64,000 nucleotides of DNA from an uncultured Rickettsiales bacterium (GTDB taxonomy: Bacteria > Pseudomonadota > Alphaproteobacteria > Rs-D84). The position numbers were made by a program, and so were the translations under genes. How positions within the stretch are numbered: the first letter of the stretch is position 1; every line of letters starts with the position of its first letter. The notes under the pieces were generated by a model. The model searched no databases. It saw only the letters and a list, made by a program, of their open reading frames with translations, and was not told the origin of the DNA. The stretch covers positions 4,570-68,569 of the forward strand of contig URSJ01000001.1 in the NCBI GenBank assembly GCA_900550495.1, written 5' to 3'. Of the stretch, positions 7,204 to 62,550 are shown piece after piece.

Positions 7204-7281
7204 GTATGGGAAAGTTTGCAACAGAACACTAGCCCGCCAGGAATCTGATATGTTTTTGTAATATAGACATATCGTTCGCAG

Positions 7282-7306
7282 GGCCCCGATAAACCGGGGC
7301 TTTTTT
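7282..7306 (+). terminator. rho-independent terminator
   Basis: Hairpin gggccccgataaaccggggc followed by tttttt. Confidence 0.55.
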
Positions 7307-9640: not shown

Positions 9641-9652
9641 CGAATAACAAAA

Positions 9653-11381: not shown

Positions 11382-11618
11382 ATGACTCATAGCGATGTTT
11401 GGTATGCCATCGATTGCTTTGCCAGCGCACACAAAATGTCGTGTTCTGGCCTGGCGCGACGCAGCGGCTTGGATCCAACGATATTTAACAAAAGCAAACG
11501 GTGGTCCAAATATGGTCAGCCACGGTGGCCGTCCACAGGCAGTATTGCAAAAATTCTGGCGGCGACAGGTGAAACAGTTAGTGATTTCACCAAATATTTT
11601 AAGCAAAAAGAAATTTAA
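11382..11618 (+). CDS. HTH protein homologous to N-terminal DNA-binding domain of alphaproteobacterial S24/CI-type repressors (peptidase domain absent), copy 1
   Basis: Contains MSCSGLARRSGLDPTIFNKSKRWSKYGQPRWPSTGSIAKIL. It is a paralog of the ORF at 48087-48332. The RBS is aaggtga, and a terminator hairpin lies at 11632-11670. Confidence 0.5.
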   Translation: MTHSDVWYAIDCFASAHKMSCSGLARRSGLDPTIFNKSKRWSKYGQPRWPSTGSIAKILAATGETVSDFTKYFKQKEI

Positions 11619-11784
11619 TGTAGCATGATACCGTGGTCAAAGTATCACGGTATTATTTTTTATCAAAAATCGAAAAATCTATCTTTTATGCTGTTTTTCA
11701 AGTTTTAAATCATGTATAATAAGAATAAACAATTATATTCACGTATTTTTGTTGCGGGTTGATTTTTAATCAAAGAGCATAGAT

Positions 11785-12687
11785 ATGGCTACGATAAAAA
11801 CCAGAGTGACCTTGTTAAAAGAACTGTTGGCCTTAAAGGAAGTAATTGACACGGGGCAGATTCAGGTTGCTGCAAATAAAAACGGCATAAAACATTCCAA
11901 TATGTCCAAATTAATTTCTGATTTAGAAATGCGTTTGAACGCGACGCTGTTACAGCGCACCCCAACGGGCAGTTTGCCAACAAATGCGACACCAGAAATT
12001 TATTCTAATATTGAAACGATATGTAATGCGTTGGACAGTATAATTGATAATGCGGCGCCAGAAGACGATTTGACAGGTTACATTTCAGTGCTGGTGGCCG
12101 AAGGGCTGGTAGGCAGTTATATTTTACACGACCTGTCGCGGTTCTATGCGATGTATCCGAAAATCCGCCTGGATTTATTGACCAATCGCCAGCAAAACCT
12201 GTCAAGTGTTGAAGTTGCGATTGTTGACACTAAATCGAATTATCAAATACCAGGGCGGACATTATTTCGTCTGCGTGCCAAAGCGCATTTTTTCACAAGC
12301 CAAGAATATTTGGACACGCACGGCATGCCCCAGAATATGGACGATATGCTGGAAAACTTTGACTTGTGTATGTATCAGTCGTATCTGAATTTACCCGAGT
12401 GTTCTTTTATTGCAAAGCGGTCGCGAAAATTAAACACGACGACGGATTCTGTTGGATTGGTATTCCGGTTGATACGTGACGGTGAAGGCATTGGATTATT
12501 ACCAGCGTGGTCAGCGCAACAGCCACCAAAACTGGTGCGGGTGCCGAACATAGATTTTGAATATGAACACCGTATGGTTGCGGCGTGTAGTCCGAAACTG
12601 ATTAATTCACCAAAGGTCAGGGCGTTTATCCGATTCCTGGACGATTTCTGTCGGCGACATGATATCCCAATTGAACGAGTATGCTAA
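11785..12687 (+). CDS. LysR-family transcriptional regulator
   Basis: An N-terminal HTH is followed by a substrate-binding-domain-sized C-terminus, 300 aa in total. Confidence 0.6.
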   Translation: MATIKTRVTLLKELLALKEVIDTGQIQVAANKNGIKHSNMSKLISDLEMRLNATLLQRTPTGSLPTNATPEIYSNIETICNALDSIIDNAAPEDDLTGYISVLVAEGLVGSYILHDLSRFYAMYPKIRLDLLTNRQQNLSSVEVAIVDTKSNYQIPGRTLFRLRAKAHFFTSQEYLDTHGMPQNMDDMLENFDLCMYQSYLNLPECSFIAKRSRKLNTTTDSVGLVFRLIRDGEGIGLLPAWSAQQPPKLVRVPNIDFEYEHRMVAACSPKLINSPKVRAFIRFLDDFCRRHDIPIERVC

Positions 12688-35076: not shown

Positions 35077-35153
35077 GGGGTTGTAGCTCAGCTGGTTAGA
35101 GCGTCTGCCTGTCACGCAGAAGGTCGAGGGTTCGAGCCCCTTCAATCCCGCCA
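35077..35153 (+). tRNA. tRNA-Asp (anticodon GUC)
   Basis: Sequence GGGGTTGTAGCTCAGCTGGTTAGAGCGTCTGCCTGTCACGCAGAAGGTCGAGGGTTCGAGCCCCTTCAATCCCGCCA. A terminator follows at 35164-35191. Confidence 0.85.
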
Positions 35154-49540: not shown

Positions 49541-49569
49541 TTGACTTTTTATATCATTTGTGATACCAT
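49541..49569 (+). promoter_or_regulatory. sigma70-like promoter candidate (TTGACT-17-TACCAT)
   Basis: -35 TTGACT, 17-bp spacer, -10 TACCAT. It is followed by two intrinsic terminators at 49595-49618 and 49626-49652, before the hydrolase gene. Confidence 0.3.
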
Positions 49570-49594
49570 TCAAAGCATCAACAGTAAAGATTCT

Positions 49595-49652
49595 GTCCGC
49601 GCAATGTGCGGATTTTTTATTTTTTGACCGCGTAAATCACGCGGTCTTTTTT
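49595..49652 (+). terminator. two tandem rho-independent terminators in leader of phage-like operon
   Basis: Hairpin 1: tccgcg-caatg-tgcgga followed by tttttt. Hairpin 2: gaccgcg-taaatca-cgcggtc followed by tttttt. Confidence 0.5.
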
Positions 49653-49691: not shown

Positions 49692-50102
49692 ATGCAACTT
49701 GAATTGATAACAAACCCAGATGTGTCACAGTGTGCCGCATATAAAATTGCACGCGTGGTTTATGCTGAAACTGGTGCAACTTCATTATCATTGGTCGAGG
49801 CATTTACATCAATGATTTCAAATCTGGCCCGGTGTCGCGGCGTTGACCCAGATGTTGTTATAACAGACCATGATGTGTTTTTATCGCTGGACGAAAATAA
49901 TGCGCGTCACGAATTATTAAATGTTGCACCAGACGTGCGTGCGTTTCAAATGTGTCTGCGTGTAGTGCGGCGGATGCTGCACGGTAATTTGCCCGATGCG
50001 TCATTTGGCGCGACACGTTTCCATCGCGCCGATGAAATGCCCGCATGGTCAACATCGCGCGGATATATCGCCGACATTGATGGCGTATTGTTCTATTTAT
50101 AA
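49692..50102 (+). CDS. cell-wall hydrolase (SleB/Hydrolase_2-like), putative endolysin
   Basis: VVYAETGATSL...ATRFHRADEMPAW resembles the cell-wall hydrolase family. The RBS is aagagggg. Confidence 0.45.
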   Translation: MQLELITNPDVSQCAAYKIARVVYAETGATSLSLVEAFTSMISNLARCRGVDPDVVITDHDVFLSLDENNARHELLNVAPDVRAFQMCLRVVRRMLHGNLPDASFGATRFHRADEMPAWSTSRGYIADIDGVLFYL

Positions 50103-50115: not shown

Positions 50116-50313
50116 ATGCGCATACAAAAAATTATTCGTGGTGGATGGTTGGCCGACCGACGCACGCACGTTATGTCGGTTGTAGGTGTGCTGTCGGCGG
50201 TGGCGGCGTATTTGGTCGGTGACAGTGATATTTTTGTTTTGTGCCAGGCACTGTTCACATTGGGCGGAATTTATTTTATTCGTAAATCAAACAATCAAAA
50301 CAAAGGAAATTAA
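50116..50313 (+). CDS. small membrane protein, putative holin
   Basis: A 66 aa protein with two hydrophobic segments (VMSVVGVLSAVAAYLV and ALFTLGGIYFI) and a charged C-terminus. It lies directly downstream of the hydrolase. The RBS is aggtgg. Confidence 0.4.
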   Translation: MRIQKIIRGGWLADRRTHVMSVVGVLSAVAAYLVGDSDIFVLCQALFTLGGIYFIRKSNNQNKGN

Positions 50314-50315
50314 AA

Positions 50316-50972
50316 ATGGAAAATATTCCTGAAAAATTTAAAAACCAAGATGGAACATTAAATGCAGACGCATTGATAAAATCATATGTGGCATTAGAAA
50401 AGAAAATCGGAACGATGATATCGGTGCCGTCTGATGATGCTGACGATGATATGCGTAACCGTTTCAGACGCGCAATTGGTGTGCCCGATGCGCCGGATAA
50501 TTATCCAAAAAATGATTTGTTTGATGATGAAAATTTGCGAGCAAAATTTTTTGAAATTGGATTGACGTCATCACAGGTTTCGCAAATTTATAACATCGCC
50601 CAAGAATTTTTATCACCAGTCATATCTGATTTGTTCGCAACACAATCCCAGGCCGCAGCAATTTCTGAATTAAAAAATTTCTTTGGCAGTGATGAAAAAA
50701 TGAACGATGCAATCAAACAAATAAATGCATTTGGAACGCAGTTTTTACCACGTGACGCATTTGATGCGTTGTGCACTACACCCCAGGGAATCCAAGGCAT
50801 ATACAGAATGATGCAATCAATGGAACCACATGTTCAAACCGCCGATAGTGATGATATAAATTTATCCGATAATGATTTGCGACGCATGATGCGCGACCCA
50901 AAATATTGGCGTGATCACGATAGTGAATACGTTCGAAAAATTGAAAATGGATTTAAAAAGTTATATTCATAA
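50316..50972 (+). CDS. putative capsid scaffolding protein (T7 gp9-like position)
   Basis: An acidic, helical 218 aa protein upstream of the capsid gene. The assignment is by position and composition. Confidence 0.4.
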
Positions 50973-51076: not shown

Positions 51077-51448
51077 ATGGCATTCACATTCTTGAAGCCA
51101 GCAGCGAAAAAAGTTGCTGCTAAAAAACCGGCTGCGAAACCAGCGGCGAAAAAAGTAGCGGCAAAACCAGCTGCCAAGAAAGTTGCTGCGAAACCAGCGG
51201 CAAAAAAAGTTGCGGTTAAAAAGCCAGCAGCGAAACCAGCAGCCAAGAAAGTTGTTGCGAAAAAAGCACCGGCAAAAAAGCCAGTTGCCAAGAAAGTAGC
51301 GGCAAAACCAGCGGCGAAAAAAGTTGCTGCAAAAAAGCCAGTTGCAAAAAAAGTTGCGGTTAAAAAACCAGCAGCGAAAAAAGTTGTTGCAAAGAAAGCG
51401 CCGGCCAAAAAGCCAGTTGCCAAGAAAACAGCAACCAAGAAAAAATAA
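51077..51448 (+). CDS. Lys/Ala/Pro-repeat histone-H1-like protein ([17 protein letters not shown] repeats)
   Basis: A 123 aa protein almost entirely of KPAAKKVA repeats. RBS aaaggagag; start at ATG 51077. The antisense ORFs here are repeat artefacts. Confidence 0.55.
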
Positions 51449-51451
51449 TAT

Positions 51452-51530
51452 TTTCCCCACCGTCCGGTGGGGTTTTTGTTCGAAGAAAGTATCAGTCGCA
51501 TCATATTAGTGCGACTGAAATTTTTTTTAC
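51452..51530 (+). terminator. two tandem rho-independent terminators between repeat-protein gene and capsid gene
   Basis: ccccaccgtccggtgggg followed by ttttt, and tcagtcgca-tcatattag-tgcgactga followed by aattttttttac. Confidence 0.45.
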
Positions 51531-51667
51531 GGATAATTCTGAATCTGTGTTTGGAACCCGATATGTTTGTTTCGTCGTGGCGCACGTTTGTGCATAACCA
51601 TGTGATGAAATTTTATCGGCGCAATTTATTGCGCCACAACTTACAGAATTTAACCAAAGGAAAAAAT

Positions 51668-52501
51668 ATGTCTGTTTCCATAGACCAAGTATTTGTAAAA
51701 CAATTCGAGGCAGATGTTCATTTAGCATACCAGCAAATGGGCACAAAACTGCGTGGAACCGTTCGCAGCAAATCGGGCGTCGTCGGTGCGTCAACAACTT
51801 TTCAAAAAGTTGGTCGTGGCACCGCCGCAACAAAATCACGTCATGGCATTGTGCCGGTTATGAACCTGAATCATGAGCCGGTTGAATGCGTGTTACAGGA
51901 TTATTATGCAGGTGATTGGGTTGACGCATTAGATGAATTAAAGACGAATGTCGATGAACGTCGTGTCGTGGCCAGTGCCGGCGCATATGCGTTGGGGCGC
52001 AAAACCGACGAACTGATTGTGAACGCCATGTCGGGTGCAACCGCGTCTGTTGGTGATTATTCAGTGGGACTGAGTAAAGATTTGATTTTGTCAGCGGTTG
52101 AAACGCTGAACAGCAAGGATATCCCAGACGATGGTCGTCGCTTTGCCGTTGTTGGTGTGCACCAGTGGAACGAATTGCTGAAAATCACAGAATTTGTTTC
52201 GGCAGATTACGTTGGCAATAATGATTTGCCGTTGATTTCTGGTGGCGCATCTAAAAAGTGGTTGGGTATTACATGGGTGCTGTATAACGCGTTGCCATTA
52301 TCAGATACGACAAAACGCGATTGCTTTATCTATCACGCGGCCAGCATCGGTCACGCATGCGGCCAGGAAGTAAAAACAGATATTTCATGGCATGGTGAAC
52401 GTGCCGCGCACTTTATCAGCAACAGCATGTCCCAGGGCGCGGTCTTGATTGATGGTGACGGTATTGTTCGTATCAAATGCAAAGACAACGACGCACAATA
52501 A
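51668..52501 (+). CDS. phage major capsid protein (T7-like podovirus type)
   Basis: Start at ATG 51668 (MSVSIDQVF...) with an aaaggaaaaaat RBS. The composition and position match the T7 gp10 class. The upstream part of the longer ORF overlaps a terminator. Confidence 0.55.
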   Translation: MSVSIDQVFVKQFEADVHLAYQQMGTKLRGTVRSKSGVVGASTTFQKVGRGTAATKSRHGIVPVMNLNHEPVECVLQDYYAGDWVDALDELKTNVDERRVVASAGAYALGRKTDELIVNAMSGATASVGDYSVGLSKDLILSAVETLNSKDIPDDGRRFAVVGVHQWNELLKITEFVSADYVGNNDLPLISGGASKKWLGITWVLYNALPLSDTTKRDCFIYHAASIGHACGQEVKTDISWHGERAAHFISNSMSQGAVLIDGDGIVRIKCKDNDAQ

Positions 52502-52523: not shown

Positions 52524-52754
52524 ATGGCTTTTCAGAATAAAAATTTGTCTGTGATTGCATATGCAAACGGGTTTACTCTGTGGCACTATGCAGAAAATGT
52601 TACATTGGCAACAATCACCGCCAGTGGTTATTTTAACGCTGTGAATACACTGATGAATACAGGCGATATTATTATCGTCAATGCGTCAGATAAAACGTCA
52701 ATCAAGGCGATAACCGTTACATCTGGAACTGTCACAACAGCGGCGTTGGGATAA
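52524..52754 (+). CDS. small phage structural protein (hypothetical)
   Basis: A 76 aa protein with an aaaggaaaaa RBS, between the capsid and tail-tube genes. Confidence 0.35.
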   Translation: MAFQNKNLSVIAYANGFTLWHYAENVTLATITASGYFNAVNTLMNTGDIIIVNASDKTSIKAITVTSGTVTTAALG

Positions 52755-52836: not shown

Positions 52837-53355
52837 ATGTTGACCAAGATAGATTTATGTTCAATGGCATTGCTGAAACTGGGCGAAAAACCGATACAAT
52901 CGTTATTAGATGACGCGCCGGCTGCGCAACTGGCCCGCACATTATTTGATCCGGTGATGGACGCATTGATTGCAGTGCACCCGTGGCGGTTTGCATGTCG
53001 CCGATTTGATTTAATCAAGGATGTCGATGGTGATTTCACCTTGCCGACCGAATGTCTGCGAGTAGTGAGGTCTGTCGGCAATATTGTTGGCAATAAAATC
53101 ATTGCACCGACCGATAGAATTTCTGTAATTGGTTTGGTGCGCGTTACACCGGACGCATTTCCGGGATATTTTGTTTCGGTGGCGGCAACAAAACTGGCGA
53201 TGGAATTTTGCGTCCCGCTGACCGGGGATCAAACGATATTCAGAATGCTGGCCGCGCTGTATGAATCAGAGTTACAGACGGCAAAATTCATTGATGGCAC
53301 AACATCATCGCCATCAAATATTGAAAACTTTTCACTGATAAATTCACGATTTTAA
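52837..53355 (+). CDS. tail tubular protein A (T7 gp11-like)
   Basis: N-terminal SMALLKLGEKPIQSLLDDAPAAQLARTLFDPVMDALIAVHPWRF aligns with T7 gp11 [44 protein letters not shown]. Confidence 0.55.
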   Translation: MLTKIDLCSMALLKLGEKPIQSLLDDAPAAQLARTLFDPVMDALIAVHPWRFACRRFDLIKDVDGDFTLPTECLRVVRSVGNIVGNKIIAPTDRISVIGLVRVTPDAFPGYFVSVAATKLAMEFCVPLTGDQTIFRMLAALYESELQTAKFIDGTTSSPSNIENFSLINSRF

Positions 53356-53373: not shown

Positions 53374-55089
53374 ATGGCAAATTTTATAAATACCCAGAAT
53401 TCTTTTGCAGATGGGGAAATTTCTCGCGAATTTTACACGCACGATAATCTGAACGGATTGGCACAATTATTAAATATGGATGTAATGTCGGGCGGCGGAA
53501 TAACGCGCCGTCCAGGATTGTGCGCGGGTGCCGAGTTGCCAAACGTGGCGCGTCTGGTGCCGTTTTCGGTTGGGGCGGATGCGGAATACATGCTGGCCAT
53601 TACCGATGGACATATATTGGTATTTTCGGGCACACAACAAATCCAGGACATCGCCGCGCCGTGGCCGGCAGATGCGATAAAATCACTGCAATACGCCCAG
53701 CGTTTTGGAACTATGATTTTTGTTCATCCAGATTTTCAGCCACGCGTGTTCCAGAGCGCGGCCGATGGATTTTCATTGTCACTGTTTGACTTTTCGCGCA
53801 ATGATTCTGATTTATCGGTCAATATTCCATTTGTGCGATTTGACGATACCGATGGTATTGAAATAACCGTAACAGCAAACAGCGCAGGTAATAACTATGC
53901 TACATTTACGACGAATCACGATTTTTGGACGTCTGATGACATAGGTGGTCGATTTATAGTTCTTGGTCGCCAGTGGACAATTACGTCAGTTACAGGCCCA
54001 ACTGTTGCCACAGCGCATACAAACGGAACATTCACATTGCCCGCCGCCGCCGTTACAGATTGGCGTCAGGCCGCGTTCAGCACGCGTCGTGGTTGGCCGG
54101 TCAGCATAACATTTCACCAGGACCGATTGGTATTCGGTGGCGCACGTGACTATCCGGCGGGCGTGTGGATGTCCCAGGTCGGTCGACACAATAACTTTGA
54201 CGTTGGGACCGGTTTGGATGACCAGGCGATATTTATCACATTACTGTCAGCCCAGCGGCAACAGATTTGCACGGTTGTCAGCGCGGATAACCTGCAAATT
54301 CTGACGACGGTGGGCGAATGGGCAATTGCGAATAAACCACTGACACCGTCATCGGTTGACATAAAGCAACACACGTCGGTCGGCAGTGTGTCGTCACGCT
54401 ATATGCCACCGCAAAAGATAGAGGGCGCAACCGTTTTTGTTGCCGCGTCCAGGCGTGATATTCGTGAACTGGCACTGGATGAACTGGGCGAAAATTATAA
54501 TGCGACCGACTTGTGCGCGTATGCGAAGCATTTAATGCAGTCCCCGGTTGACATTGCGTATAACAGTGCCGAACGGCAATTATTTGTCGTTATGGCGTCA
54601 GGCGATATGGCTGTATTGAATCAGAATACGGCGTTGGGGATTTCTGCGTGGGCCCAGTATAAAACAAACGGCGAATTTAAATCTGTTGCGGTATCGGCGG
54701 ACAAAACGTTCGTTGTTGTCGCGCACGATGGAAAATATTTCCTGGAATATTTTTCGCACGACGCGCTGTGTGATGCGCCGGCGTATAATTTCAGTGTCGT
54801 GGCCGCGGGCGTTCCCCTGCGGGGCAGTGGGCATAACGCCGCGCGTGCGCGTATTCGTAAAATTGCTGCACGGGTCAGTGATACAAAATCAATACTGATA
54901 AATGATATGCGATGTGTGTTGCCAGATGAAATATACGTCGCATCACATTCAGGCTTTACCGGTGATGTGTCAGTTGGTGCATTGGGCTGGATGAATGACT
55001 GTGTCGTGTCGCCATGGCGAATTTCGTCCCAGGATGCGGCAAAAATAACTGTCTTGTCGGTCACAATGTATGGATATTACACAGTTTAA
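53374..55089 (+). CDS. tail tubular protein B (T7 gp12-like nozzle)
   Basis: N-terminal FADGEISREF...GGGITRRPGL resembles T7 gp12 LKGGISQQPD...GLQKRPPL. A 571 aa protein immediately after the gp11-like gene. Confidence 0.5.
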   Translation: MANFINTQNSFADGEISREFYTHDNLNGLAQLLNMDVMSGGGITRRPGLCAGAELPNVARLVPFSVGADAEYMLAITDGHILVFSGTQQIQDIAAPWPADAIKSLQYAQRFGTMIFVHPDFQPRVFQSAADGFSLSLFDFSRNDSDLSVNIPFVRFDDTDGIEITVTANSAGNNYATFTTNHDFWTSDDIGGRFIVLGRQWTITSVTGPTVATAHTNGTFTLPAAAVTDWRQAAFSTRRGWPVSITFHQDRLVFGGARDYPAGVWMSQVGRHNNFDVGTGLDDQAIFITLLSAQRQQICTVVSADNLQILTTVGEWAIANKPLTPSSVDIKQHTSVGSVSSRYMPPQKIEGATVFVAASRRDIRELALDELGENYNATDLCAYAKHLMQSPVDIAYNSAERQLFVVMASGDMAVLNQNTALGISAWAQYKTNGEFKSVAVSADKTFVVVAHDGKYFLEYFSHDALCDAPAYNFSVVAAGVPLRGSGHNAARARIRKIAARVSDTKSILINDMRCVLPDEIYVASHSGFTGDVSVGALGWMNDCVVSPWRISSQDAAKITVLSVTMYGYYTV

Positions 55090-55114: not shown

Positions 55115-55462
55115 ATGGGACAATTGGTTTCCGATATCCAAGAAGTTTTGGACTATAAAAAAAACAAGAGTGAGGCCAGCACCGCTCGCAAGAAAATCTT
55201 GGCAGATATGGCGGCTGACGAAAAAACAAAAACAAATTTGGTAAAAAAAGCCTTGGCAACCCAGCGCGCAAAATACGGTGCGTCGGGGATGTCAAATCGT
55301 GGCATGACCGAAGATGCCGTGTTGCGACGCCTGCAATCTGAAACGGCCGCGCCATATGATGAAAAGCGTCGCGCGTCGTTGGAAAAACTGCGCCGAGTCA
55401 AGGCAACAAAACCAAATTTGTTGAAAAAATTAATGGACCGATTTGACGATTTGGTCGCTTAA
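55115..55462 (+). CDS. small basic virion-associated protein (gp13-like position), hypothetical
   Basis: A 115 aa protein with an aagggag RBS. Confidence 0.35.
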   Translation: MGQLVSDIQEVLDYKKNKSEASTARKKILADMAADEKTKTNLVKKALATQRAKYGASGMSNRGMTEDAVLRRLQSETAAPYDEKRRASLEKLRRVKATKPNLLKKLMDRFDDLVA

Positions 55463-55473: not shown

Positions 55474-56028
55474 ATGTATAAAATATCATATGTCGCTGAT
55501 GGCGTTACGACCGAATATCAATTTGTATTCCCGTTTTTTCAAAATGCTGATGTGCATGTCGCAATTGATGGCGTGGCCACAGACGCCGCTGCGGGAGTAT
55601 ATTCGGTTGTGCCAAACGATGATTTTACCGGTGGCAGTGTCGTATTTCAAAACCCTGTGCGCACGGATGCAACGATTGATATATTTCGGCGCGTCGCACT
55701 GAGCCGTGTGATTGATTACCAGCCGACGATGAAAGTTGACCCAGAATCACTGAACGCGGACTTTAATTTTTTATTGGCTGCATTTAGTGACCTGGACGGG
55801 GTGAATGTTGACCTGGCCGAGTGGAAAAATACCCACGATAATGTAATGAATTTTTTGAATTACAACCTGGCGGTGATTCAAGACAAATTATCGGGCGGGG
55901 CGGTATTGGGACTGTATCAAAATCTGCTGTCGGTGCTGGATGGGGCGTTGCCAAAATTGGTCAATGATTATGGGATGATTACTGATGTCGCGCCAAATGA
56001 AAACCGCGATGACTATGGCGTTCTGTGA
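55474..56028 (+). CDS. T7-tail-fibre N-terminal adaptor domain protein (no distal fibre/spike domain)
   Basis: YKISYVADGVTTEYQFVFPFF...VHVAIDGV parallels the T7 gp17 N-terminus TVLTYQLDGSNRDFNIPFEYL...VVVTLIGV. Only 184 aa. Confidence 0.5.
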   Translation: MYKISYVADGVTTEYQFVFPFFQNADVHVAIDGVATDAAAGVYSVVPNDDFTGGSVVFQNPVRTDATIDIFRRVALSRVIDYQPTMKVDPESLNADFNFLLAAFSDLDGVNVDLAEWKNTHDNVMNFLNYNLAVIQDKLSGGAVLGLYQNLLSVLDGALPKLVNDYGMITDVAPNENRDDYGVL

Positions 56029-56614
56029 TTTTATGGACCAATGGAACGCATTGCTGGGGATGAAAACGCCCGCGCACCATCGGCGGATAATGGAATTCTT
56101 GGTGGATACCTGGACCGCGCCACCAAATAGGGGTTTGCTGATGGCATTTCGGCATTCGGGTAAATCCACCGTTGTGGGGATTTTTGCAGCATGCGTGTTA
56201 TGTATGCGACCAGAATCGCGTATTCTGATTTTATCCGCAGAAACCACACTCTCGTCGCGCATGGTTGGACATATTCGTAACATATTAGAAAATCATCCGC
56301 GTTGCGTTGATATGATTCCAACCGGACGGCGAACGTGGGCCAGTGACCGAATAACAGTAAATCGGCCAATTGGCATACGTGAACCGTCGGTCATCTGTGC
56401 TGGTGTTGCCGGTAACATAACGGGCGCACGCGCAGATTTAATAATATGCGATGATGTCGAAGTTCCAAATACCAGCAACACCGCCGACAAACGTGAAAAG
56501 TTACGTGAACGATTACGGGAATTGGATTTTATCTTGTCCCCAGGTGGCACAATGATTTATATCGGAACGCCACATACGGTTGATACGATTTATCGCACCA
56601 GCGATGACGACTAA
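55985..56614 (+). pseudogene. terminase large subunit, N-terminal ATPase fragment (gene split by 3.3 kb insert)
   Basis: Walker A AFRHSGKST and Walker B LIICDDVE. It ends after GTPHTVDTIYRT. The remainder of the gene resumes at 59956. Confidence 0.55.
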
Positions 56615-57330
56615 ATCGATGTCGGCGCGTCGGGCGCATTGTCGGTATCAATTGGATCACGTGTGCTGATAAACGTGCGCAGTTTGCGCAGCAATTCATC
56701 ACCCGCATCACCAAACATCGGCAGATATGTTTCATATTCGGGCATGTCAGCCTGCAATTGCGCCCGTGCACGTTCCGACAGCGGTTCGTTCAGCATATCT
56801 GTTGCGACATGCCACAAGAAATACGCACGATATGTCTTGGTAATGACGGTCCATTTTGATAACAGTTCCGGTTTTTGGGCCAGGGCGGAATGAATTGCAA
56901 CCGGCCATTCATCGCCAAATTTGCGGATAACATTCAATTGCTGAATCTGGTTCAGGCCTTTTTCATCGGGGGTAAATGCAGCTATGCCAGATTCCAGTTC
57001 GCGCCACTCGTCTGCGTTTAGGGGGATTGTCACAATCGTTTCGGCCATTTGACCGCCATATGGTAACAATTCACGGTCAATGGTATCCATTCGTGTTTTG
57101 CCACTGCGCAGGTTTTCAATATGCTGGATTAACATTTTTCCGGTTGGCAAGACGCGCAACTCGCGTATGACTTCGTCATCAGCCTCGGCCACAAAGACGG
57201 GATTTATCGCCGCCCAGCCGCCGATTATGACGTGTTCCTGACGATACAGGTTTAGCAATTTTTGTGCGATTGTGCTGGCTCTGGCTTTCATGGGTTCTCT
57301 CTCTAATTTCTTGGGGTTATTCCATAACAA
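56611..57330 (-). CDS. hypothetical protein
   Basis: A 239 aa ORF overlapping the adjacent repressor gene by 14 nt. Confidence 0.35.
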   Translation of the reverse strand: MLWNNPKKLEREPMKARASTIAQKLLNLYRQEHVIIGGWAAINPVFVAEADDEVIRELRVLPTGKMLIQHIENLRSGKTRMDTIDRELLPYGGQMAETIVTIPLNADEWRELESGIAAFTPDEKGLNQIQQLNVIRKFGDEWPVAIHSALAQKPELLSKWTVITKTYRAYFLWHVATDMLNEPLSERARAQLQADMPEYETYLPMFGDAGDELLRKLRTFISTRDPIDTDNAPDAPTSI

Positions 57331-58324
57331 TCATAATAACCTTGTGCATGGTCTGACCGATTATTTTTTCGTCAGGCGATGAAATCTGGCCGTATATTTT
57401 GCCACGTGAATCTTGGCGCACACTGACAATTTGGGCTGTGGCAACCGTATCAGATGCCAATGCGCTAAAATCAGTGTCGATGCATACGGCCAAGTCACCA
57501 ACGGTGGGTGTCTGTGTTGCATCAGCGAAAACATACGAGTGTTCCGGGATAAAACCACCCATACGTTTCGAATTTGGAATAACAGCGTATATTCCGCTGC
57601 GTCCTTCCAGCGGCATTGGGGCAACAATCATCGTTTCATCGGATTTTTTGAATGCGATTGATTTGCCAGCGGGCGCACCAAATACCGGGACCAATTTTTT
57701 ACGTGCACTGTCATACAATTTTGCGCCATACAGCCCCCCGTGCATATCAATACCAGATGCAGGATTGTCTGGAATCAGAACAGATTTTACACGTTCTTTA
57801 ACCTTGCTGATTTGTTTGTTTAATTCGCCAGATTTATAAAGTGTGGCGATTTTATCGAACAGGCTTTGTGCACTCATTGCGAATGACCGGGCCAGTGGTT
57901 CAATTTCGTTTTGGTAAATTTCACGTTGGCCAACCTCTATCTTGTGATAGACGGATAGCGTCATGCCGGCGTCGTGTGCCGCCTGGGCAATCGTTTTACC
58001 GGTTTGCTGGCGAATCTTGCGCAGGCCCGAACCAAATATTTTCAGACCGCTGTCCTCGTTATCGGTCAGACGACGTTTAATTTCACTCTGCCATTGGTCG
58101 GCAACGGCGTCGTCTTCCTTGATAAATATGTCGGATAATTTGCAACCCAAAATGTTACAGATGTTCAGTAACTGTTTCTGGTTCAGACGGCGAACACCCT
58201 TTTCAATCTTGGATACGGCGGACAGGGACAAGTGCGACTGGCGTGCCAGTTCGGTCATTTTCATCCCCGCGGCCAAGCGGATGTTACGAATATTGTTTGG
58301 AAAAATGATTTCTTCTTGGGCCAT
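57317..58324 (-). CDS. CI/LexA-type repressor: two XRE HTH domains + C-terminal S24-peptidase-like domain
   Basis: HTH1 is MTELARQSHLSLSAVSKIEKG. HTH2 is IAQAAHDAGMTLSVYHKIEVG. The C-terminus VPVFGAPAG...AVIPNSKRMGGFIPEHSYVFAD...VSVRQDSRGKIYGQ parallels the LexA/CI cleavage domain. Confidence 0.55.
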   Translation of the reverse strand: MAQEEIIFPNNIRNIRLAAGMKMTELARQSHLSLSAVSKIEKGVRRLNQKQLLNICNILGCKLSDIFIKEDDAVADQWQSEIKRRLTDNEDSGLKIFGSGLRKIRQQTGKTIAQAAHDAGMTLSVYHKIEVGQREIYQNEIEPLARSFAMSAQSLFDKIATLYKSGELNKQISKVKERVKSVLIPDNPASGIDMHGGLYGAKLYDSARKKLVPVFGAPAGKSIAFKKSDETMIVAPMPLEGRSGIYAVIPNSKRMGGFIPEHSYVFADATQTPTVGDLAVCIDTDFSALASDTVATAQIVSVRQDSRGKIYGQISSPDEKIIGQTMHKVIMIVME

Positions 58325-58397
58325 AGCAAAACTCCTGCACTTGGGTGTTTCTTGACAAAATATTAGTCAATTTTTGCACGCGCCGCAAGTAAAATAA

Positions 58398-59957
58398 TTA
58401 TAATTCCATATCGTCAGGTATTGCCGATGCGTCAATTTGTTCAAATGCATCAACATTATCGGAATCAGATTTTGGCTGAGCCGTCGGCGTTTGGGCAAAA
58501 TCATTTTCGCCACGTGCGTCTATTTCATCCAGATTGTCAAACAGACTGTAATCGCCAAAAAACGCAGTTCGAACCGTTTCTGGACGACCATGACGGTTTT
58601 TACCGATGATGATGTCCGCCTTGCCACGGGCGCGTTCCAGGCGTTTTTGATATGATTCCTGAATCTTGTCGTTTGTGTTGCCTGAAATTCGTTGTGACGG
58701 ATCACGGTTGTCCAGATAGTATTCTTCGCGGTATGTGAACATGACAATGTCTGCGTCCTGTTCAATAGAGCCTGATTCGCGCAAATCCGCCAACTGGGGG
58801 CGTTTATCGTCGCGATTTTCCACACTGCGCGATAACTGGGACAGGGCGATAACTGGGACATCTAATTCCTTGGCCAGCATTTTCAGACCACGAGTGATTT
58901 CAGAAATTTCCTGGACACGGTTGTCATTTTTGCGCCCGCCCGGTGACGTCATCAGTTGCAGATAGTCGATTACAATCAATGCAATCCCGCCGCATTTACG
59001 CGCCAAACGACGGGCACGTGTGCGCATCATTGGCACCGACATGCCGGGCGTGTCATCGATATACAATGGCACGCGACTGATTGCCTGGGAATACTGGGAC
59101 ATTTTTAAAAATTCTTCATCAGAAAATGATCCTTCGCGCATTGCAGATGCAGGAATCTTGGACTGGGACGACAGCACACGCGTCGCCAGCTGTTCCTGGG
59201 ACATTTCCAGACTGAAAAACACGACCGCGCCCTTGTATTGGTCATTGGCGCGCCCCGATAGAATTGCGTTCGCGGCGTTAAATGCAATATTCATTGCCAG
59301 CGTTGTTTTACCCATCGCTGGACGACCCGCGATAATAATCAAATCACTGTGGTGCAGACCGCTGATTGATTTATCCAGTGCGTTCAGCCCCGTGGTCAGA
59401 CCTGATAATTTGCCGTCGGCCTTGTATGCAATCTCGGCCTCTTTCAATGCGCCCTGTAATGCGGTTGCGATTGGCGTAACCTCGCGACGGGTTTCACCCG
59501 CCGACGCCAGGTTGAATAATTTTTGTTCGGCAACCTCTATCTGGGTGGTGACAGGGTTATCCAAATCTTCGACAAATGCGTTGTCGGTAATTGATTGTCC
59601 CAAATCAATCAGTTGGCGCCGCAGGGCGTTTTCATAAACGATACGCGCATATTGTTCAACGTTTACAACCGTTGCGCCAGCACCCGCCAACTGGGTCAGG
59701 TAATCAACGCCACCAACAGATTCCAACGTTCCCTGTTGGTCCAGGTAATTTTTCGCGGTGATAATATCAAACGGAATACCCGCGGCAAATTGGCGTTCGG
59801 CCAATTTATAAATTTCCTGGTGCGCGGGATGCGAAAAATGTTCCGGTTTCAAAAATTCAGAAATGCGTTCTAATGCGCGGTTATTCATCAACACCGCGGC
59901 CAGGACAGCCTGTTCGGCCTCTAAATTAGTTGGCAAAGTTTTGGGAGTAAAGTCCAT
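58398..59957 (-). CDS. dnaB: replicative DNA helicase DnaB
   Basis: N-terminal domain PTNLEAEQAVLAAVLMN, Walker A GRPAMGKTTLAMNIA, and an acidic C-terminal tail. Start at ATG 59957; the longer ORF has an implausible N-terminal extension. Confidence 0.85.
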   Translation of the reverse strand: MDFTPKTLPTNLEAEQAVLAAVLMNNRALERISEFLKPEHFSHPAHQEIYKLAERQFAAGIPFDIITAKNYLDQQGTLESVGGVDYLTQLAGAGATVVNVEQYARIVYENALRRQLIDLGQSITDNAFVEDLDNPVTTQIEVAEQKLFNLASAGETRREVTPIATALQGALKEAEIAYKADGKLSGLTTGLNALDKSISGLHHSDLIIIAGRPAMGKTTLAMNIAFNAANAILSGRANDQYKGAVVFFSLEMSQEQLATRVLSSQSKIPASAMREGSFSDEEFLKMSQYSQAISRVPLYIDDTPGMSVPMMRTRARRLARKCGGIALIVIDYLQLMTSPGGRKNDNRVQEISEITRGLKMLAKELDVPVIALSQLSRSVENRDDKRPQLADLRESGSIEQDADIVMFTYREEYYLDNRDPSQRISGNTNDKIQESYQKRLERARGKADIIIGKNRHGRPETVRTAFFGDYSLFDNLDEIDARGENDFAQTPTAQPKSDSDNVDAFEQIDASAIPDDMEL

Positions 59958-60804
59958 GTCCAATATAGTATCCAAAAAATTTATGTTTTCAACGCCTTTT
60001 TTGCACGGATATAAAACACTGAAAATTCCGGTGGTTGATGATGCCGGCCTGTCCGTCTGGCCCGAATTATTCCCGCCGCATCGCATTGACGAATTGCGGG
60101 CGGCGGTTGGTCCACGACATTTTGCGGCGCAAATGATGTTGGAACCGGTTGCGCCCGAACGTATGCGCCTGGACCCCGGGGCATTACATTTATATGATAA
60201 TGCGTTTGATGCGCACAGTGCCAAAATTGGTGAACATAAAATCACTGGCGCATCGGTATATTGGGATCCATCAACGGGACGACGCGGTCGCGACGGCAGT
60301 GTGTGCGTTATGCTGTATCGTGATGACACAACGCGATGCGTGTTTATTCACGACATTTTATATATGACGGCGTCGGACGATGACGCGCACCCATTGGCGC
60401 ACCAGTGTGATGCGGTGCTGGAATTTATGGCGCGTCACAATATGCGTCGCATAGCGATTGAAACAAATGGAATAGGAAACGCGTTGCCAGAAATAATGCG
60501 TGACGCGGCCAGTCGCGTGGGTGCGCCAATTACAATTATGCGCATTACCAATAACAGGCCAAAGGTTGACCGAATCTTGGACGCAATTGAACCGGCCCTG
60601 GCCGCCGGGCGATTGTATGCGCACCGTGCGTGTTCACAAACACCATTTATTGCCGAAATGTTGGGCTGGTCGCCAATTGGCGGGGCGGGGCATGACGACG
60701 GACTGGACGCGGTGGCGGGCGCAATATGTGCCACGCCAACACCAATCCGCCCCACGGGACACCACGCCCCCACATATTCCGCAAACACGAATTTCAAGGT
60801 TTAA
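59956..60804 (+). pseudogene. terminase large subunit, C-terminal (ATPase lid + nuclease) fragment
   Basis: KIPVVDDAGLSVWPELF...AAQMMLEPV, then nuclease-domain acidic residues (DPSTGRRGRDGSVCVM...HDDGLDAVAGAI). ATG 59956 has a GGGAG RBS and overlaps the dnaB start codon on the opposite strand. Confidence 0.5.
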
Positions 60805-60832: not shown

Positions 60833-62056
60833 ATGCAAAATGATTTAGAAAAAATGTATCGGCGTGCGCTGGACGCGCGTGCGCCGTGGTTAAATCGCTG
60901 GGACGCGGCAATGCGATATACTATGCCGACCGACGACACAGATGCCGCAACACTGTTTGACGCAACCGCGGCAGACGCGGCAGACAACCTGGCGGCGTCA
61001 ATATATTCGCTGATGACGCCACCAGAATCGCTGTGGATATCACTGGTCCCGGAAAGCGACGCGTCCCCCGACGCAGATGCCGCAACCATTGCATTACGCG
61101 CGAACCTGAACGATTCAAATTTCTATACCACAATTCATCAATGCTATCTGGATTTGGTGATTTTGGGAACGGCGTGTCTATTTATGGCAGAAACACCAAT
61201 CGGTGCGTCGTCGGCGTTTTCGTTCACCGCCGTGCCTATGCGTGATATTGCGATTTTGCCGGGTGCAGTATTTCACACAGCGACAATGCCGGCGCACGAA
61301 GTGCTGGAAAAATATCCAACCTGGACGCCACCAGCCGATGTTGCCGACCAAATCAAGCACGACCCGGCAACGCCGTTGCGCCTGGTCCAAAGTTTGGTTG
61401 GCACAGAATTCACCGCGTGGTTGGACGTTGGGGGAAATCTGGAAAACAATATCGTTGCGCGTGGCACATTTGAAACCAACCCATACATCATTTTCCGGTG
61501 GAGTGTTTTAAGCGGTGAACAATATGGTCGTGGGCCGGTCTTGCGCGCATTGCCAGATATTAAAACTGCGAACAAGGTTGTTGAACTGGTGCTGAAAAAC
61601 GCAACGATTGCCGTGTCTGGGATATGGCAGGCCGACGATGATGGCGTCATAAATCTGAACAATATAAACCTGACGCCGGGGGCAATTATCCCCAAGGCCG
61701 TTGGGTCATCAGGGCTGACGCCGCTGTCGTCGGGCGCAGATTTTGATGTGTCGCAAATAATATTAAAAGACCTGCGCGAACGGATTCGCCACGCGTTGTT
61801 GGCCGACCGATTGGGGTTGCTGTCTGAAAAAGAAATGACCGCGACCGAAATCATGGCACGTAATTCTGATATGGTTAGAATTCTGGGGGCGACATACGGG
61901 CGATTGCTGCATGAATTTATTCGGCCATTGACCGACCGGGGATTACAGATTTTATCGCGCCGTGGGGTGATTGCGCCAATCGCGCTGAACAGTGACGCAG
62001 AATTGAAATACATTGCGCCAATCGCACAAATGGCTGTGTCTGAAAACTTGATTTAA
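60833..62056 (+). CDS. portal (head-to-tail connector) protein, T7 gp8-like, short
   Basis: ARAPWLNRW resembles T7 gp8 NDRAPYETR. YGRGPVLRALPDIKTANKVVELVLKNATIAVSGIW resembles gp8 YGRSYIEEYLGDLRSLENLQEAIVKMSMISSKVIGLV. Length 407 aa. Confidence 0.55.
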   Translation: MQNDLEKMYRRALDARAPWLNRWDAAMRYTMPTDDTDAATLFDATAADAADNLAASIYSLMTPPESLWISLVPESDASPDADAATIALRANLNDSNFYTTIHQCYLDLVILGTACLFMAETPIGASSAFSFTAVPMRDIAILPGAVFHTATMPAHEVLEKYPTWTPPADVADQIKHDPATPLRLVQSLVGTEFTAWLDVGGNLENNIVARGTFETNPYIIFRWSVLSGEQYGRGPVLRALPDIKTANKVVELVLKNATIAVSGIWQADDDGVINLNNINLTPGAIIPKAVGSSGLTPLSSGADFDVSQIILKDLRERIRHALLADRLGLLSEKEMTATEIMARNSDMVRILGATYGRLLHEFIRPLTDRGLQILSRRGVIAPIALNSDAELKYIAPIAQMAVSENLI

Positions 62057-62261
62057 CAACGGGGAAAAATATGAACGAAACAGAACAAAATTACGCACGC
62101 GCATTTTCAACCGCCGCCGGTGCGGCAGTATTACAACATCTGCGAAAAATGACTATTGAACGTGTCTTGGGGCCAAATGCGTCGGACGCCGAATTGCGCA
62201 GCCTGGAATCCCAGCGTGCGTTGGTGCATTTGATTGAAAATATGATATCACGGGGGCGAAA

Positions 62262-62522
62262 ATGAAACAGGAAACGAGTGCCTTGGGCGGTATTATCGCG
62301 ACCCTGCGCGACAGTTGGTTTTTAATCGCGTTTATCGGCGGCTTGATTTATTGGGTCGCACGCCAGGATTCGTCATTGGCGGACATTCAACGCGCCGACA
62401 CGCGTATTACCACGCTGGAAAATCGCACTACGATATTGGAAACTGGCATCGGTCAATTACAGATAAAACTGGATACGATTCGCGACGACGTGTCGTTGAT
62501 AAAAACCGCCGTGATAAAATAA
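62262..62522 (+). CDS. membrane-anchored coiled-coil protein (i-spanin/Rz-like)
   Basis: N-terminal TM segment FLIAFIGGLIYWV followed by a heptad-rich helix. A terminator lies at 62521-62550. Confidence 0.35.
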   Translation: MKQETSALGGIIATLRDSWFLIAFIGGLIYWVARQDSSLADIQRADTRITTLENRTTILETGIGQLQIKLDTIRDDVSLIKTAVIK

Positions 62523-62550
62523 AAAACGGGGCAGACGCCCCGTTTTTATA
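62521..62550 (+). terminator. bidirectional rho-independent terminator
   Basis: Hairpin aacggggcagacgccccgtt followed by ttttt. Confidence 0.55.

Follow-up and report, generated by a model that had tools for sequence, protein, structure and literature searches.

A phage-derived gene cluster whose large terminase (TerL) is encoded in two pieces, conserved across the alphaproteobacterial order Rs-D84, points to a working two-chain terminase and to a possible new podovirus-type gene transfer agent (GTA). The cluster was analysed in a 64,000-nucleotide stretch of DNA (the window), where it covers 13 kb (49.5-62.5 kb) with genes for endolysin, scaffold, capsid, tail tube, TerL and portal. We consider it probable, with real room for doubt, that the cluster has been domesticated as a GTA-like element, works with a two-chain terminase and is inherited vertically across Rs-D84, and that it is not a prophage. 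Rs-D84 ('Candidatus Enterousia' and relatives, a genome-reduced order of gut bacteria) would pass on the cluster vertically; the cluster encodes a T7-type head, a stub tail, lysis proteins and a DNA-packaging enzyme; the large terminase would be made as two separately translated polypeptides; and particles would be produced and DNA transferred. Genomes of Rs-D84 are smaller than 1 Mb (PMC12306168).

The T7-type TerL occupies two ORFs in the window, TerL-N and TerL-C, separated by 3.34 kb of opposite-strand DNA with genes for a 226-aa protein and a double-HTH regulator, and dnaB:

55985-56614, plus strand: TerL-N, 209 aa, with the C-terminal end ...GTPHTVDTIYRTSDDD* (ORF call)
56611-57291, minus strand: h239, a conserved, all-helical protein of 226 aa, start at 57291
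57317-58324, minus strand: HTH335, 335 aa, two XRE-type HTH domains (HTH_3 twice, Pfam) and a C-terminal domain of about 150 aa
58352-58370, no strand assigned: perfect palindrome TTGAC-N9-GTCAA just upstream of the HTH335 gene, a candidate operator or promoter
58398-59957, minus strand: dnaB, 519 aa, DnaB and DnaB_C domains (Pfam), host-type replicative DNA helicase
59956-60804, plus strand: TerL-C, 282 aa, start ATG at 59956 (ORF call)
59965-59992, minus strand: predicted dnaB promoter TTGAAA-16-TACTAT (consensus scan), 7 nt upstream of the dnaB ATG and inside TerL-C codons 4-13

ORF calls, Pfam and NCBIfam agree with a preliminary description of this DNA, which had a T7-type TerL split by three minus-strand genes including a bacterial-type dnaB. 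It had also taken both fragments to derive from TerL, and they do: Pfam assigns Terminase_6N to TerL-N, and Terminase_6C with a T7 RNaseH-like domain to TerL-C. TerL-N exceeds the NCBIfam termin_lrg_T7 cut-off (227 bits vs 150) and aligns with residues 52-217 of the T7 and PhiV-1 TerL. When aligned with an intact phage TerL by tblastn, the joined sequence gave one segment covering residues 4-490; it is colinear with ten intact homologues, so that the proposed alignment of the fragments to intact TerL left no residue missing. TerL-N holds Walker A, motif III and Walker B with its catalytic Glu; the ATPase core strand that comes next, together with the lid and an RNaseH-like nuclease domain, is in TerL-C. 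The earlier placement of the split at the ATPase/lid junction is thus roughly right; in finer detail, the cut interrupts the ATPase core between motif III and the beta-strand that comes next, ahead of the lid. Alignment with intact TerLs shows a length-variable loop at the junction. In an AF2 model of the joined protein, whose best fold matches are full-length large terminases, pLDDT falls below 50 at residues 198-222 around the junction (209/210), and the core strand follows at 229-233; the model accordingly places the cut in a variable surface loop within the ATPase core. Because the cut lies inside this core, TerL-N and TerL-C would have to reassemble non-covalently into the ATPase, and the fragments would associate and be active. 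No intact TerL was found in close relatives: in a search of 5.8 billion proteins, intact TerLs reached at best 40-46% identity, and separate C-fragments of about 280 aa reached 60-91%.

The enclosed genes fit between the TerL halves with no spare bases, stops overlapping at one end and starts at the other. The stop codons of TerL-N and h239 overlap by 4 nt, and the ATGs of dnaB and TerL-C share the sequence CATG, with GGGAG 9 nt upstream of the TerL-C ATG. This ribosome-binding site, the ATG and its overlap with that of dnaB had been described before; they are present as described and kept at almost every related locus. Conserved stop or start codons delimit each fragment separately, with a largely conserved ribosome-binding motif (GGGAG/GGGGT) upstream, and the N-terminus of TerL-C is conserved among orthologues. 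Programmed gene rebuilding is known from the skin element in sigK and from prophage 'regulatory switches', and an intact terL might likewise be rebuilt in terminally differentiated producer cells by excision or inversion of the 3.3-kb segment. The colinearity of the two frames, with nothing missing, would suit such a process, and the loss of dnaB would be tolerable in a cell already bound for lysis. We nevertheless regard it as very improbable, as each fragment carries the translation signals just described, and the longest junction repeats across 77 loci were at chance level, both direct (6.7 nt vs 6.6 nt in shuffles) and inverted (7.0 vs 6.8). The target-site duplications that had been suggested were looked for at the junctions, and none was found. 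Pfam and NCBIfam searches detected no recombinase gene in or near the segment, and in locus L174 the ORF ends are unchanged even though the DNA between them is of another size and content.

The dnaB-strand consensus across loci is TTGAAA-N16-TACnAT-N7-ATG, and synonymous-site entropy drops to 0.12 in TerL-C codons 1-15, compared with 0.75 on average over the gene. A dnaB promoter is therefore predicted within the first 12 codons of TerL-C, and part of the conservation of the TerL-C 5' end would be due to this embedded promoter rather than to terminase function. Such a promoter would also be expected if the cluster were a slowly decaying prophage remnant with a dead terminase, its TerL fragments persisting only for signals of the essential dnaB operon. 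We give little credence to this explanation, in which those signals would be the dnaB promoter in the 5' end of TerL-C and a termination region in the 3' end of TerL-N. Internal deletions in 3 of about 77 species (L013, L053 and L069) do agree with it: tail genes and the beginning of TerL-N are gone, and the 3' part adjoining h239 is spared. These deletions also mean that the cluster is dispensable and able to decay. However, synonymous entropy is normal past TerL-C codon 15, and L174 keeps TerL-C though it no longer adjoins dnaB.

Selection along the full length of both fragments also argues against a remnant. The dN/dS values, which are approximate given that dS is near saturation for many pairs, were 0.10 for TerL-N and 0.14 for TerL-C, compared with 0.12 for h239, 0.06 for HTH335, 0.065 for dnaB, 0.21 for the scaffold, 0.07 for both the capsid and the tail tubular B-like protein, and 0.04 for the portal. 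Walker A, Walker B and motif III were invariant in 74/74 TerL-N orthologues, and so were the acidic (Asp/Glu) nuclease residues in 82/82 TerL-C orthologues; the invariant residues include catalytic ones distant from the junctions. Capsid (median pairwise distance 0.14) and portal are as conserved as DnaB despite strong reductive pressure on the genomes, and correlate with dnaB in pairwise distance (rho 0.58-0.73). By these substitution patterns both TerL halves are under purifying selection. The preliminary description had offered a choice between a dead terminase, making the element defective, and a function as two polypeptides; dN/dS values of 0.10-0.14, invariant catalytic motifs in 74-82 orthologues and the order-wide split speak against the former, and a two-polypeptide terminase fits the evidence, as we infer from sequence.

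The enclosed genes are, judging from their families and distribution, host genes and not a phage repressor module. DnaB scores above the NCBIfam equivalogs NF006606 (613 bits, cut-off 540) and TIGR00665 and under the phage_DnaB cut-off; dnaB was found at every related locus, and the copy in the window would be the only one. The N-terminal 130 or so aa of HTH335 are almost invariant in 78 species, and the palindrome, kept in 78 loci, is the sole perfect copy in the window. HTH335 had been described as a tandem-HTH S24 repressor; the two HTH_3 domains hold, while a search for an S24 peptidase domain gave no confirmation. The HTH335/h239 pair also occurs amid host genes in other alphaproteobacterial MAGs, where neither phage genes nor dnaB accompany it, so that the earlier assignment to a phage CI/LexA-type module is not sustained. 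For the same reason 'insert' is in one respect a misleading term for the 3.3 kb. The hypothetical protein, called at 239 aa, is 226 aa in every orthologue.

The split point and the nesting were the same in all 80 species-representative loci retrieved, with the gene order scaffold-capsid-tube A-tube B-...-TerL-N-[h239, HTH, dnaB on the minus strand]-TerL-C-portal-Bbp19-p86. One of these loci lies in a closed long-read circular chromosome of 958,618 bp, and a deep lineage with 43% TerL-C identity has the identical split point. Since the arrangement recurs in more than 80 independent assemblies, including the circular chromosome, it is neither chance nor misassembly, and on this distribution the split is not a recent lesion. 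The left flank is lipB wherever visible; the right flank is rearranged in many lineages, with the cluster intact.

The remainder of the cluster comprises the following features.

49541-49646, plus strand: promoter-like site TTGACT-17-TACCAT with an upstream TG, then two hairpin/T-tract terminator-like elements, between lipB and the first cluster gene (consensus scan)
49692-50102, plus strand: g136, endolysin-like (PHROG 938 endolysin, E 9e-6)
50116-50313, plus strand: g65, small conserved protein, same position in all loci
50316-50972, plus strand: T7-type scaffolding protein (PF05396)
51077-51448, plus strand: g123, Lys/Ala-rich small protein (ORF and translation)
51668-52501, plus strand: major capsid protein (PF19821 Phage_capsid_2)
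52524-52754, plus strand: g76, conserved small virion-module protein (PHROG 18004)
52837-53355, plus strand: tail tubular protein A-like (PHROG 394 tail protein, E 3e-30)
53374-55089, plus strand: tail tubular protein B-like, nozzle (PHROG 376 tail protein, E 1e-79)
55115-55462, plus strand: p115, homologue of the protein that follows tail tubular B in intact-TerL relatives
55474-56028, plus strand: p184, N-terminal anchor domain of a tail fibre or spike (PHROG tail-fibre families)
60833-62056, plus strand: T7-type portal, head-to-tail connector (PF12236, E 4e-80)
62071-62265, plus strand: Bbp19-family small protein (PF25181), after the portal in intact-TerL relatives as well
62262-62522, plus strand: p86, N-terminal hydrophobic segment and coiled coil
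62522-62547, no strand assigned: strong palindromic hairpin with T-tracts at the cluster end (terminator-like scan: 11 pairs, 6 G-C)

The block at 49541-49646 is kept in the 26 loci where the region is visible and may reflect antitermination-type control. The g136 protein is 26-43% identical to the Hydrolase_2 gene product that comes after TerL in intact relatives, and its L173 orthologue has a weak Hydrolase_2 match; the L170 orthologue of the tail tubular A-like protein weakly matches PF17212 Tube. Neither g65 (NCBIfam, PHROG) nor g123 (PHROG) matched a family, and a role of g65 as holin is only a guess. g76 is kept in both split-TerL and intact-TerL relatives. A profile search with p115 matched L087_183 (E 5e-11), L088_114 and L005_202, leaving unmatched the ORF of about 100 aa that lies ahead of intact TerL. 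The p184 protein, undetected in about half of the related loci, matches PHROG tail-fibre families over their first 110 or so positions only (of 650-1450) and has no receptor-binding part. p86 has weak profile similarity (E 0.018) to a protein of 106-107 aa that comes after intact TerL and is possibly a lysis-cassette protein.

Neither integrase nor replication genes were found within 10 kb on either side of the cluster, and no tRNA gene within 14 kb (the nearest is at 35,077-35,153). Since it has no integrase, replication genes or phage regulatory module, the cluster is better read as a domesticated GTA-like element than as a prophage. IMG/VR does include predicted viral segments from the region (L090-L095 and others), as would be expected of an active temperate phage that acquired a host-gene cassette (moron) in its terminase gene. 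But the listed segments are just 10-12 kb, excised from bacterial contigs, and the same arrangement in more than 80 species, diverging in step with dnaB beside a fixed left flank and with no integrase, replication or immunity module, leaves this idea next to no probability.

No small terminase was recognised in the cluster, where the ORF of about 100 aa preceding TerL in intact relatives has no counterpart, and neither a receptor-binding tail fibre nor T7-type internal core proteins were found there. Delivery of DNA to a recipient is uncertain for this reason, unless the genes lie elsewhere. The same absences would fit a functional, selected cluster that serves some other end, for instance to kill, to release cell contents or to interact with a partner cell, or TerL halves co-opted for a DnaB-linked transaction on host DNA. 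A partner-dependent life as symbionts or parasites is assumed for the hosts (PMC12306168), and the cluster is physically interlocked with dnaB, which also accords with such roles. We judge them rather unlikely: portal, scaffold and capsid are conserved jointly with both active sites of the terminase (ATPase and nuclease), which is what marks a head that packages DNA, and the missing functions may sit elsewhere in the genome, as in RcGTA, some of whose genes, e.g., those for tail fibres, are at other loci.

Several known systems resemble the domesticated GTA-like element in part. 'Fractured genes' with split inteins (Dassa et al. 2009, PMC2677866) and intein- or intron-bearing phage TerL genes likewise have one enzyme in two separated ORFs. 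The Rs-D84 TerL, in contrast, has no intein: its summed length equals that of intact TerLs, with no extra segments of about 100 aa (N-intein) or about 35 aa (C-intein), and the intervening genes are cellular, on the opposite strand, and not a homing endonuclease. In skin/sigK, SPbeta/spsM and the comK prophage, a gene is also split by several kb of unrelated DNA, with halves that sum to a complete protein; unlike these, the Rs-D84 locus has neither recombinase nor att-like repeats, each half has its own translation signals, and the segment carries a probably essential housekeeping gene. The large terminases of T7 (gp19) and PhiV-1 (PDB 4BIJ, 8DGC) belong to the same family, share the catalytic motifs and match the fold of the joined model over full length, but are single chains of about 586 aa, compared with two chains of 209 and 282 aa encoded 3.3 kb apart. 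A homologous gene set (portal, Bbp19, scaffold, capsid, g76, tube A, tube B, p115-like, TerL and endolysin) is also found in other Alphaproteobacteria, in prophage-like clusters whose TerL is intact (Skermanella sp. TT6, Roseospira and Acetobacteraceae MAGs; L005, L087, L088). These differ in a TerL of 479-501 aa (40-46% identity), an order with portal first and TerL-endolysin last, the ORF of about 100 aa ahead of TerL and, in some, a full tail fibre, with no dnaB, HTH or h239 gene nearby.

FpGTA of Faecalibacterium prausnitzii is, by the part of its description available (PMC12946183), likewise GTA-like and from a gut bacterium, and its morphology is inferred to resemble that of a podovirus; it is called there the first GTA-like element in the gut and the first podovirus-like one. 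It differs in its Firmicutes host and in that encapsidated host DNA was shown experimentally, and that part of the description mentions neither a split terminase nor a nested dnaB. The alphaproteobacterial GTAs (RcGTA, BaGTA and Caulobacter GTA) share with the Rs-D84 cluster a phage-derived structural and packaging gene set of about 13-15 kb that is chromosomally fixed, vertically inherited and under purifying selection, without replication or integration genes. The Rs-D84 cluster differs from them in its two-piece TerL with no recognised small terminase, and in being of T7/podovirus type (T7 portal, T7 scaffold, tail tubular A/B and T7-type TerL) rather than siphovirus-like.

The large terminase of the phage-derived cluster (13 kb, 49.5-62.5 kb of the window) is encoded by two plus-strand reading frames, TerL-N and TerL-C, which enclose three genes on the opposite strand. 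This arrangement, proposed in the preliminary description, was borne out by the ORF list and the sequence. The genes concerned are as follows.

55985-56614, plus strand: TerL-N, N-terminal part of the T7-type large terminase, 209 aa, C-terminal end GTPHTVDTIYRTSDDD followed by the stop codon
56611-57291, minus strand: h239, 226 aa in this reading (the ORF can be read as 239 aa)
57317-58324, minus strand: HTH335, double-HTH regulator, 335 aa
58398-59957, minus strand: dnaB, 519 aa
59956-60804, plus strand: TerL-C, C-terminal part of the terminase, 282 aa
60833-62056, plus strand: T7-type portal, directly after TerL-C (Pfam Head-tail_con)

The gene first described as a hypothetical of 239 aa is indeed a minus-strand ORF of that length, but it encodes 226 aa in every orthologue. 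Every locus encodes the terminase halves as separate ORFs that have stop and start codons of their own and a distance of 3.34 kb between them; the enclosed segment measures 3293-3358 nt across loci. In nearly all of them the stop ends of TerL-N and h239 overlap by 4 nt, and the start codons of dnaB and TerL-C have a CATG in common.

Both fragments proved to be TerL-derived, as had been assumed. TerL-N scored 227 bits against the T7-type TerL equivalog NF033889 of NCBIfam (cut-off 150; profile positions 2-191 of 500), matched Pfam Terminase_6N, and aligned with residues 52-217 of the T7 and PhiV-1 terminases. TerL-C alone gave 105 bits against NF033889, below the cut-off of 150, and passed both Pfam Terminase_6C (30.5, cut-off 22.6) and Terminase-T7_RNaseH-like (29.7, cut-off 27). 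When the two products were concatenated (N+C), they matched an intact phage TerL in a single tblastn segment (residues 4-490) and were colinear with ten intact homologues, so that the alignment originally suggested as a check revealed no missing residues. Inteins or introns are common in TerL genes; a split intein or a fractured gene was rejected here, because N+C has the length of an intact terminase and the junction holds no extra segments. On intact TerLs, the TerL-N match stops at about 197-205 and the TerL-C match starts at about 199-214, and the junction falls in a loop of variable length, flanked by the motif III strand (YIGTPHT..TIY) and a conserved PFL.GY..L.IP segment. The AlphaFold2 model of N+C, whose best fold matches were the full-length large terminases of PhiV-1, HK97, T4, T7, Sf6 and D6E, has pLDDT <50 at residues 198-222, with the junction at 209/210; a beta-strand (229-233) and then the lid helices come after the junction. 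Because alignment and model place the junction before this strand, the cut lies inside the ATPase core, and TerL-C supplies part of the core in addition to lid and nuclease. ATPase activity would require both chains.

A single polypeptide with ATPase and nuclease, as is usual for T7-type TerL, is not what this locus encodes, and a dead terminase was one of the two possibilities raised at the outset. The ATPase motifs GKS (Walker A), CDDVE (Walker B and catalytic Glu) and GTP (motif III), and the motifs of the acidic nuclease triad (WDP, ETNG and DDGLD), are invariant in 74-82 orthologues. By the Nei-Gojobori method, applied to pairs with dS of 0.1-1.2, dN/dS was 0.10 for TerL-N and 0.14 for TerL-C; it was 0.07 for capsid, 0.04 for portal, 0.07 for tail tubular B, 0.065 for dnaB, 0.06 for HTH335 and 0.12 for h239, with a range of 0.04-0.21 over the tested genes. 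A dead terminase is therefore unsupported: it conflicts with the invariant catalytic residues, with purifying selection on both halves and with an order-wide split that is kept across the sampled loci.

The window is a piece of a 195-kb metagenome scaffold. A search of N+C against 5.8 billion proteins retrieved C-fragment-only proteins of 279-284 aa in dozens of 90%-identity clusters (60-91% identical), and the best intact TerLs in the same search, from Skermanella, Roseospira and Acetobacteraceae MAGs, were only 40-46% identical. A species-level scan (one genome per species) yielded 406 relatives, the best 80 of which were analysed. These 80 loci come from gut alphaproteobacterial MAGs named 'Candidatus Enterousia', UBA6376, 'uncultured Rickettsiales' and the like, and include a circular chromosome of 958,618 bp. 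Enterousia belongs to the order Rs-D84, all members of which have reduced genomes, mostly <1 Mb, and are thought to be dependent on a partner cell (PMC12306168). In host genomes of <1 Mb, every kilobase retained argues for function.

Gene order was the same in every sufficiently flanked locus: the small genes g136 and g65, scaffold, capsid, the small gene g76, tail tubular A, tail tubular B, p115, (p184), followed by TerL-N, the minus-strand genes h239, HTH and dnaB, TerL-C, portal, Bbp19 and p86, where p115, p184 and p86 are small proteins. IMG/VR fragments had an order identical to that of the species loci. In a deep lineage (L174), TerL-C is only 43% identical and the split point is the same (DTIYKS with the stop codon, and M...PREPFLRGY). 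The junctions of this locus are loose, and an IS1595 transposase, a 765-aa AEP-TOTE/DEAD-box helicase protein and three small ORFs lie between dnaB and TerL-C (2342-8552 of the locus). As the split point is found there with loose junctions, the split is older than the sampled radiation and independent of tight junctions. The L174 TerL-C also carries a low-complexity insertion of ~60 aa.

In relatives whose TerL is intact, the genes run portal, Bbp19, scaffold ... TerL, endolysin. As their clusters start with the portal and end with TerL and endolysin, the Enterousia cluster is also rearranged, with lysis genes first and the portal block after TerL. Two IMG/VR contigs (L120 and L144) carry a homologous cluster in cyclically rotated order (TerL, endolysin, portal, scaffold, capsid, tail tubular A/B), and no terminal repeats were found in them. 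In another gut metagenome organism (L088/L089, 1779-13433), a compact ~10-kb cluster comprises portal, Bbp19, scaffold, capsid, tail tubular A/B, an intact TerL and endolysin; it is flanked by a rubrerythrin gene on one side and by the S10 ribosomal operon on the other, and a gene for an S24 repressor lies upstream. This cluster may represent the same family of GTA-like elements, with its terminase undivided.

Rejoining of the two halves at the DNA level was also considered. Target-site duplications and direct or inverted repeats, which the preliminary description had proposed to look for, did not exceed the shuffled expectation at the junctions of the window and of 77 loci, and no recombinase gene was recognised by a family match in Pfam and NCBIfam searches. 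Excision, inversion and recent transposition were rejected, since junction repeats are at chance level; an excisable intervening element and programmed DNA rejoining were rejected for want of both a site-specific recombinase and flanking repeats. A 402-aa TerL-C protein (P0003) was likewise rejected as a fused TerL intermediate, since it proved to be an internally duplicated TerL-C whose nested context is the usual one. At this locus (L170, 8228-9436), ~120 nuclease-domain residues are tandemly duplicated; the duplication is either genuine or an artefact of assembly.

The cluster extends from a conserved promoter-like site with two hairpin/T-tracts (49541-49646) to a strong hairpin (62522-62547). 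Within 49541-49646, the promoter-like site is followed by two hairpin/T-tract terminator-like elements before the first cluster gene; this block is kept in all 26 loci that show the region, and its layout resembles antitermination-type control of a late operon. The spacer between g123 and capsid (51449-51667) holds a further pair of conserved hairpin/T-tract elements along with other conserved blocks, e.g. GGCGCA...GCATAACC. The g123 gene itself (51077-51448), between the scaffold and capsid genes, encodes a Lys/Ala/Pro-rich protein with histone-H1-like AAKKPAAK repeats; it had no family match, and similarity was detected only in the closest relatives. The cluster encodes an endolysin-like protein, T7 scaffold, capsid, tail tubular A and B, the p115 protein, which matches the gene after tail tubular B in relatives, a tail fibre represented by its N-terminal anchor only, the split TerL, portal, Bbp19 and a small protein with a hydrophobic segment and a coiled coil. 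In relatives, a candidate small terminase of ~100 aa is encoded directly ahead of the intact TerL; the cluster has no counterpart of this ORF.

Thus, the cluster holds head, tail and packaging genes; neither an integrase nor replication genes were found within +/-10 kb of it, which is the gene content expected of a gene transfer agent (GTA). The nearest tRNA gene, at 35,077-35,153, is more than 14 kb away, and Rfam and tRNA scans returned nothing in the cluster. The left flank is lipB wherever visible. The right flank is variable among 76 loci (yraN in 26, trmA in 3 and other genes in 47), and the cluster is intact. An active phage conflicts with these flanks and with the missing integrase and replication genes. 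Positions 1-12000 of the window have a G+C content of 33-38% versus 42-54% in the remainder, and may be a horizontally acquired island.

Inheritance of the cluster is vertical and under purifying selection, as in GTAs, with identical synteny in the best 80 of 406 relatives and with dnaB as the comparison gene. Median pairwise distances were 0.14 for capsid, 0.18 for portal and 0.16 for DnaB, and all cluster genes had distances that correlated with the dnaB distances (rho 0.58-0.73). Deletions in three species (L013, L053 and L069) have removed genes for tail tubular proteins and the 5' portion of TerL-N, and in L053 also most of portal and Bbp19; the enclosed host genes and TerL-C are kept in all three. 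These deletions show that the element is dispensable and decays occasionally. L013 is filed under a Bacteroides fragilis bin, probably a binning error.

The genes between the terminase halves belong to the host. The enclosed 519-aa helicase matched Pfam DnaB and DnaB_C, passed NF006606 (613 bits, cut-off 540) and TIGR00665 (514, cut-off 385), and remained below the cut-off of the phage_DnaB family (413 vs 499). One dnaB copy is present in the 64-kb window and one in each 20-kb locus. Universal retention, a dN/dS of 0.065 and genomes of <1 Mb argue for dnaB being single-copy per genome, and hence essential.

The second enclosed gene had been described as a CI/LexA-type repressor. The N-terminal HTH part of this description holds, with two XRE-type HTH_3 domains in Pfam and a first ~130 residues that are almost invariant in 78 species. 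No Pfam Peptidase_S24 match was obtained for HTH335, and its C-terminal domain gave no PDB match by profile and nothing against LexA in hhalign; against the L088 S24 protein, hhalign returned a weak alignment (E 0.043, probability 1%) with an invariant Lys at the position of the catalytic Ser. Its identity as a phage repressor did not hold: double-HTH and h239 genes lie side by side in two other alphaproteobacterial MAGs (L171, 8913-10708; L172, 8953-10687), in ordinary host surroundings next to YidC or an MFS transporter, with dnaB and phage genes absent nearby. Because the pair occurs among host genes elsewhere, HTH335 is not a leftover phage repressor; the pair is an uncharacterised two-gene module. 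No match to h239 was found in Pfam, NCBIfam or PHROGs, and only 49 representatives were present among 1.84 billion proteins; distant homologues, traced by profile, gave nothing informative in Pfam. The protein is all-helical (AF2 model, pLDDT 77), and its model has no PDB fold match.

A palindrome, TTGAC-N9-GTCAA (58352-58370), lies in the 73-nt dnaB-HTH335 spacer just upstream of the HTH335 gene. Kept in 78 loci, it probably serves the double-HTH regulator as operator or promoter. An operator common to the HTH335 promoter and the cluster was rejected, since the 64-kb window has no second perfect copy; the palindrome search of the window thus gave nothing that connects the regulator with the phage genes.

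In TerL-C, codons 1-15 have a synonymous-site entropy of 0.12, compared with 0.75 over the whole gene. On the dnaB strand, these codons read TTGAAA-N16-TACnAT-N7-ATG, from which we infer a sigma-70-like dnaB promoter and an mRNA that would be leaderless or nearly so. There was no comparable dip in dnaB codons 1-45 (0.61-0.70 vs 0.72), and no synonymous-site dip indicating a promoter elsewhere in dnaB. The 90 nt preceding TerL-C hold no plus-strand promoter-like element of strong conservation, and expression of TerL-C and portal may therefore depend on head-on transcription through the dnaB promoter. One possibility is that TerL-C and portal are transcribed by upstream read-through, antisense to the dnaB operon, possibly over its whole length. 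Such head-on transcription, the basis of the speculative commitment-switch reading given below, would tie the maturation of particles to a shut-down of the replicative helicase. A core replication gene and its promoter placed between phage-gene halves without spare bases is an unusual architecture, and the nesting of dnaB would either make the element hard to delete or link replication control to particle production.

Judged from sequence, the best-supported reading is that of a domesticated, GTA-like, T7-type element with a two-chain terminase and with host replication and regulatory genes between the halves. The head of a T=7 T7-type particle would have a capacity of ~40 kb, more than the 13-kb cluster. 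That Rs-D84 harbours an unrecognised podovirus-type GTA with an obligate two-chain terminase, in which the dnaB interlock may act as a commitment switch, is a further-reaching proposal that we regard as rather improbable.

In some phages, the TerL ATPase and nuclease domains are encoded by adjacent genes; we know of no terminase in which the cut falls within the ATPase core and cellular genes separate the halves. No description of a split terminase of such kind, of phage genes in Enterousia or Rs-D84, or of a T7-type GTA was found in the literature searched. A 2026 study presents FpGTA of Faecalibacterium as the first gut and the first podovirus-like GTA-like element (PMC12946183). The Rs-D84 cluster is a strong candidate for a new GTA lineage, of T7/podovirus type, in Alphaproteobacteria of the animal gut. 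Large terminases are usually described as single-chain motors, whereas the Rs-D84 version would consist of two chains. An order-wide TerL cut in the ATPase core, under selection, would be a natural split-protein experiment, and could show how ATPase core, lid and nuclease communicate.
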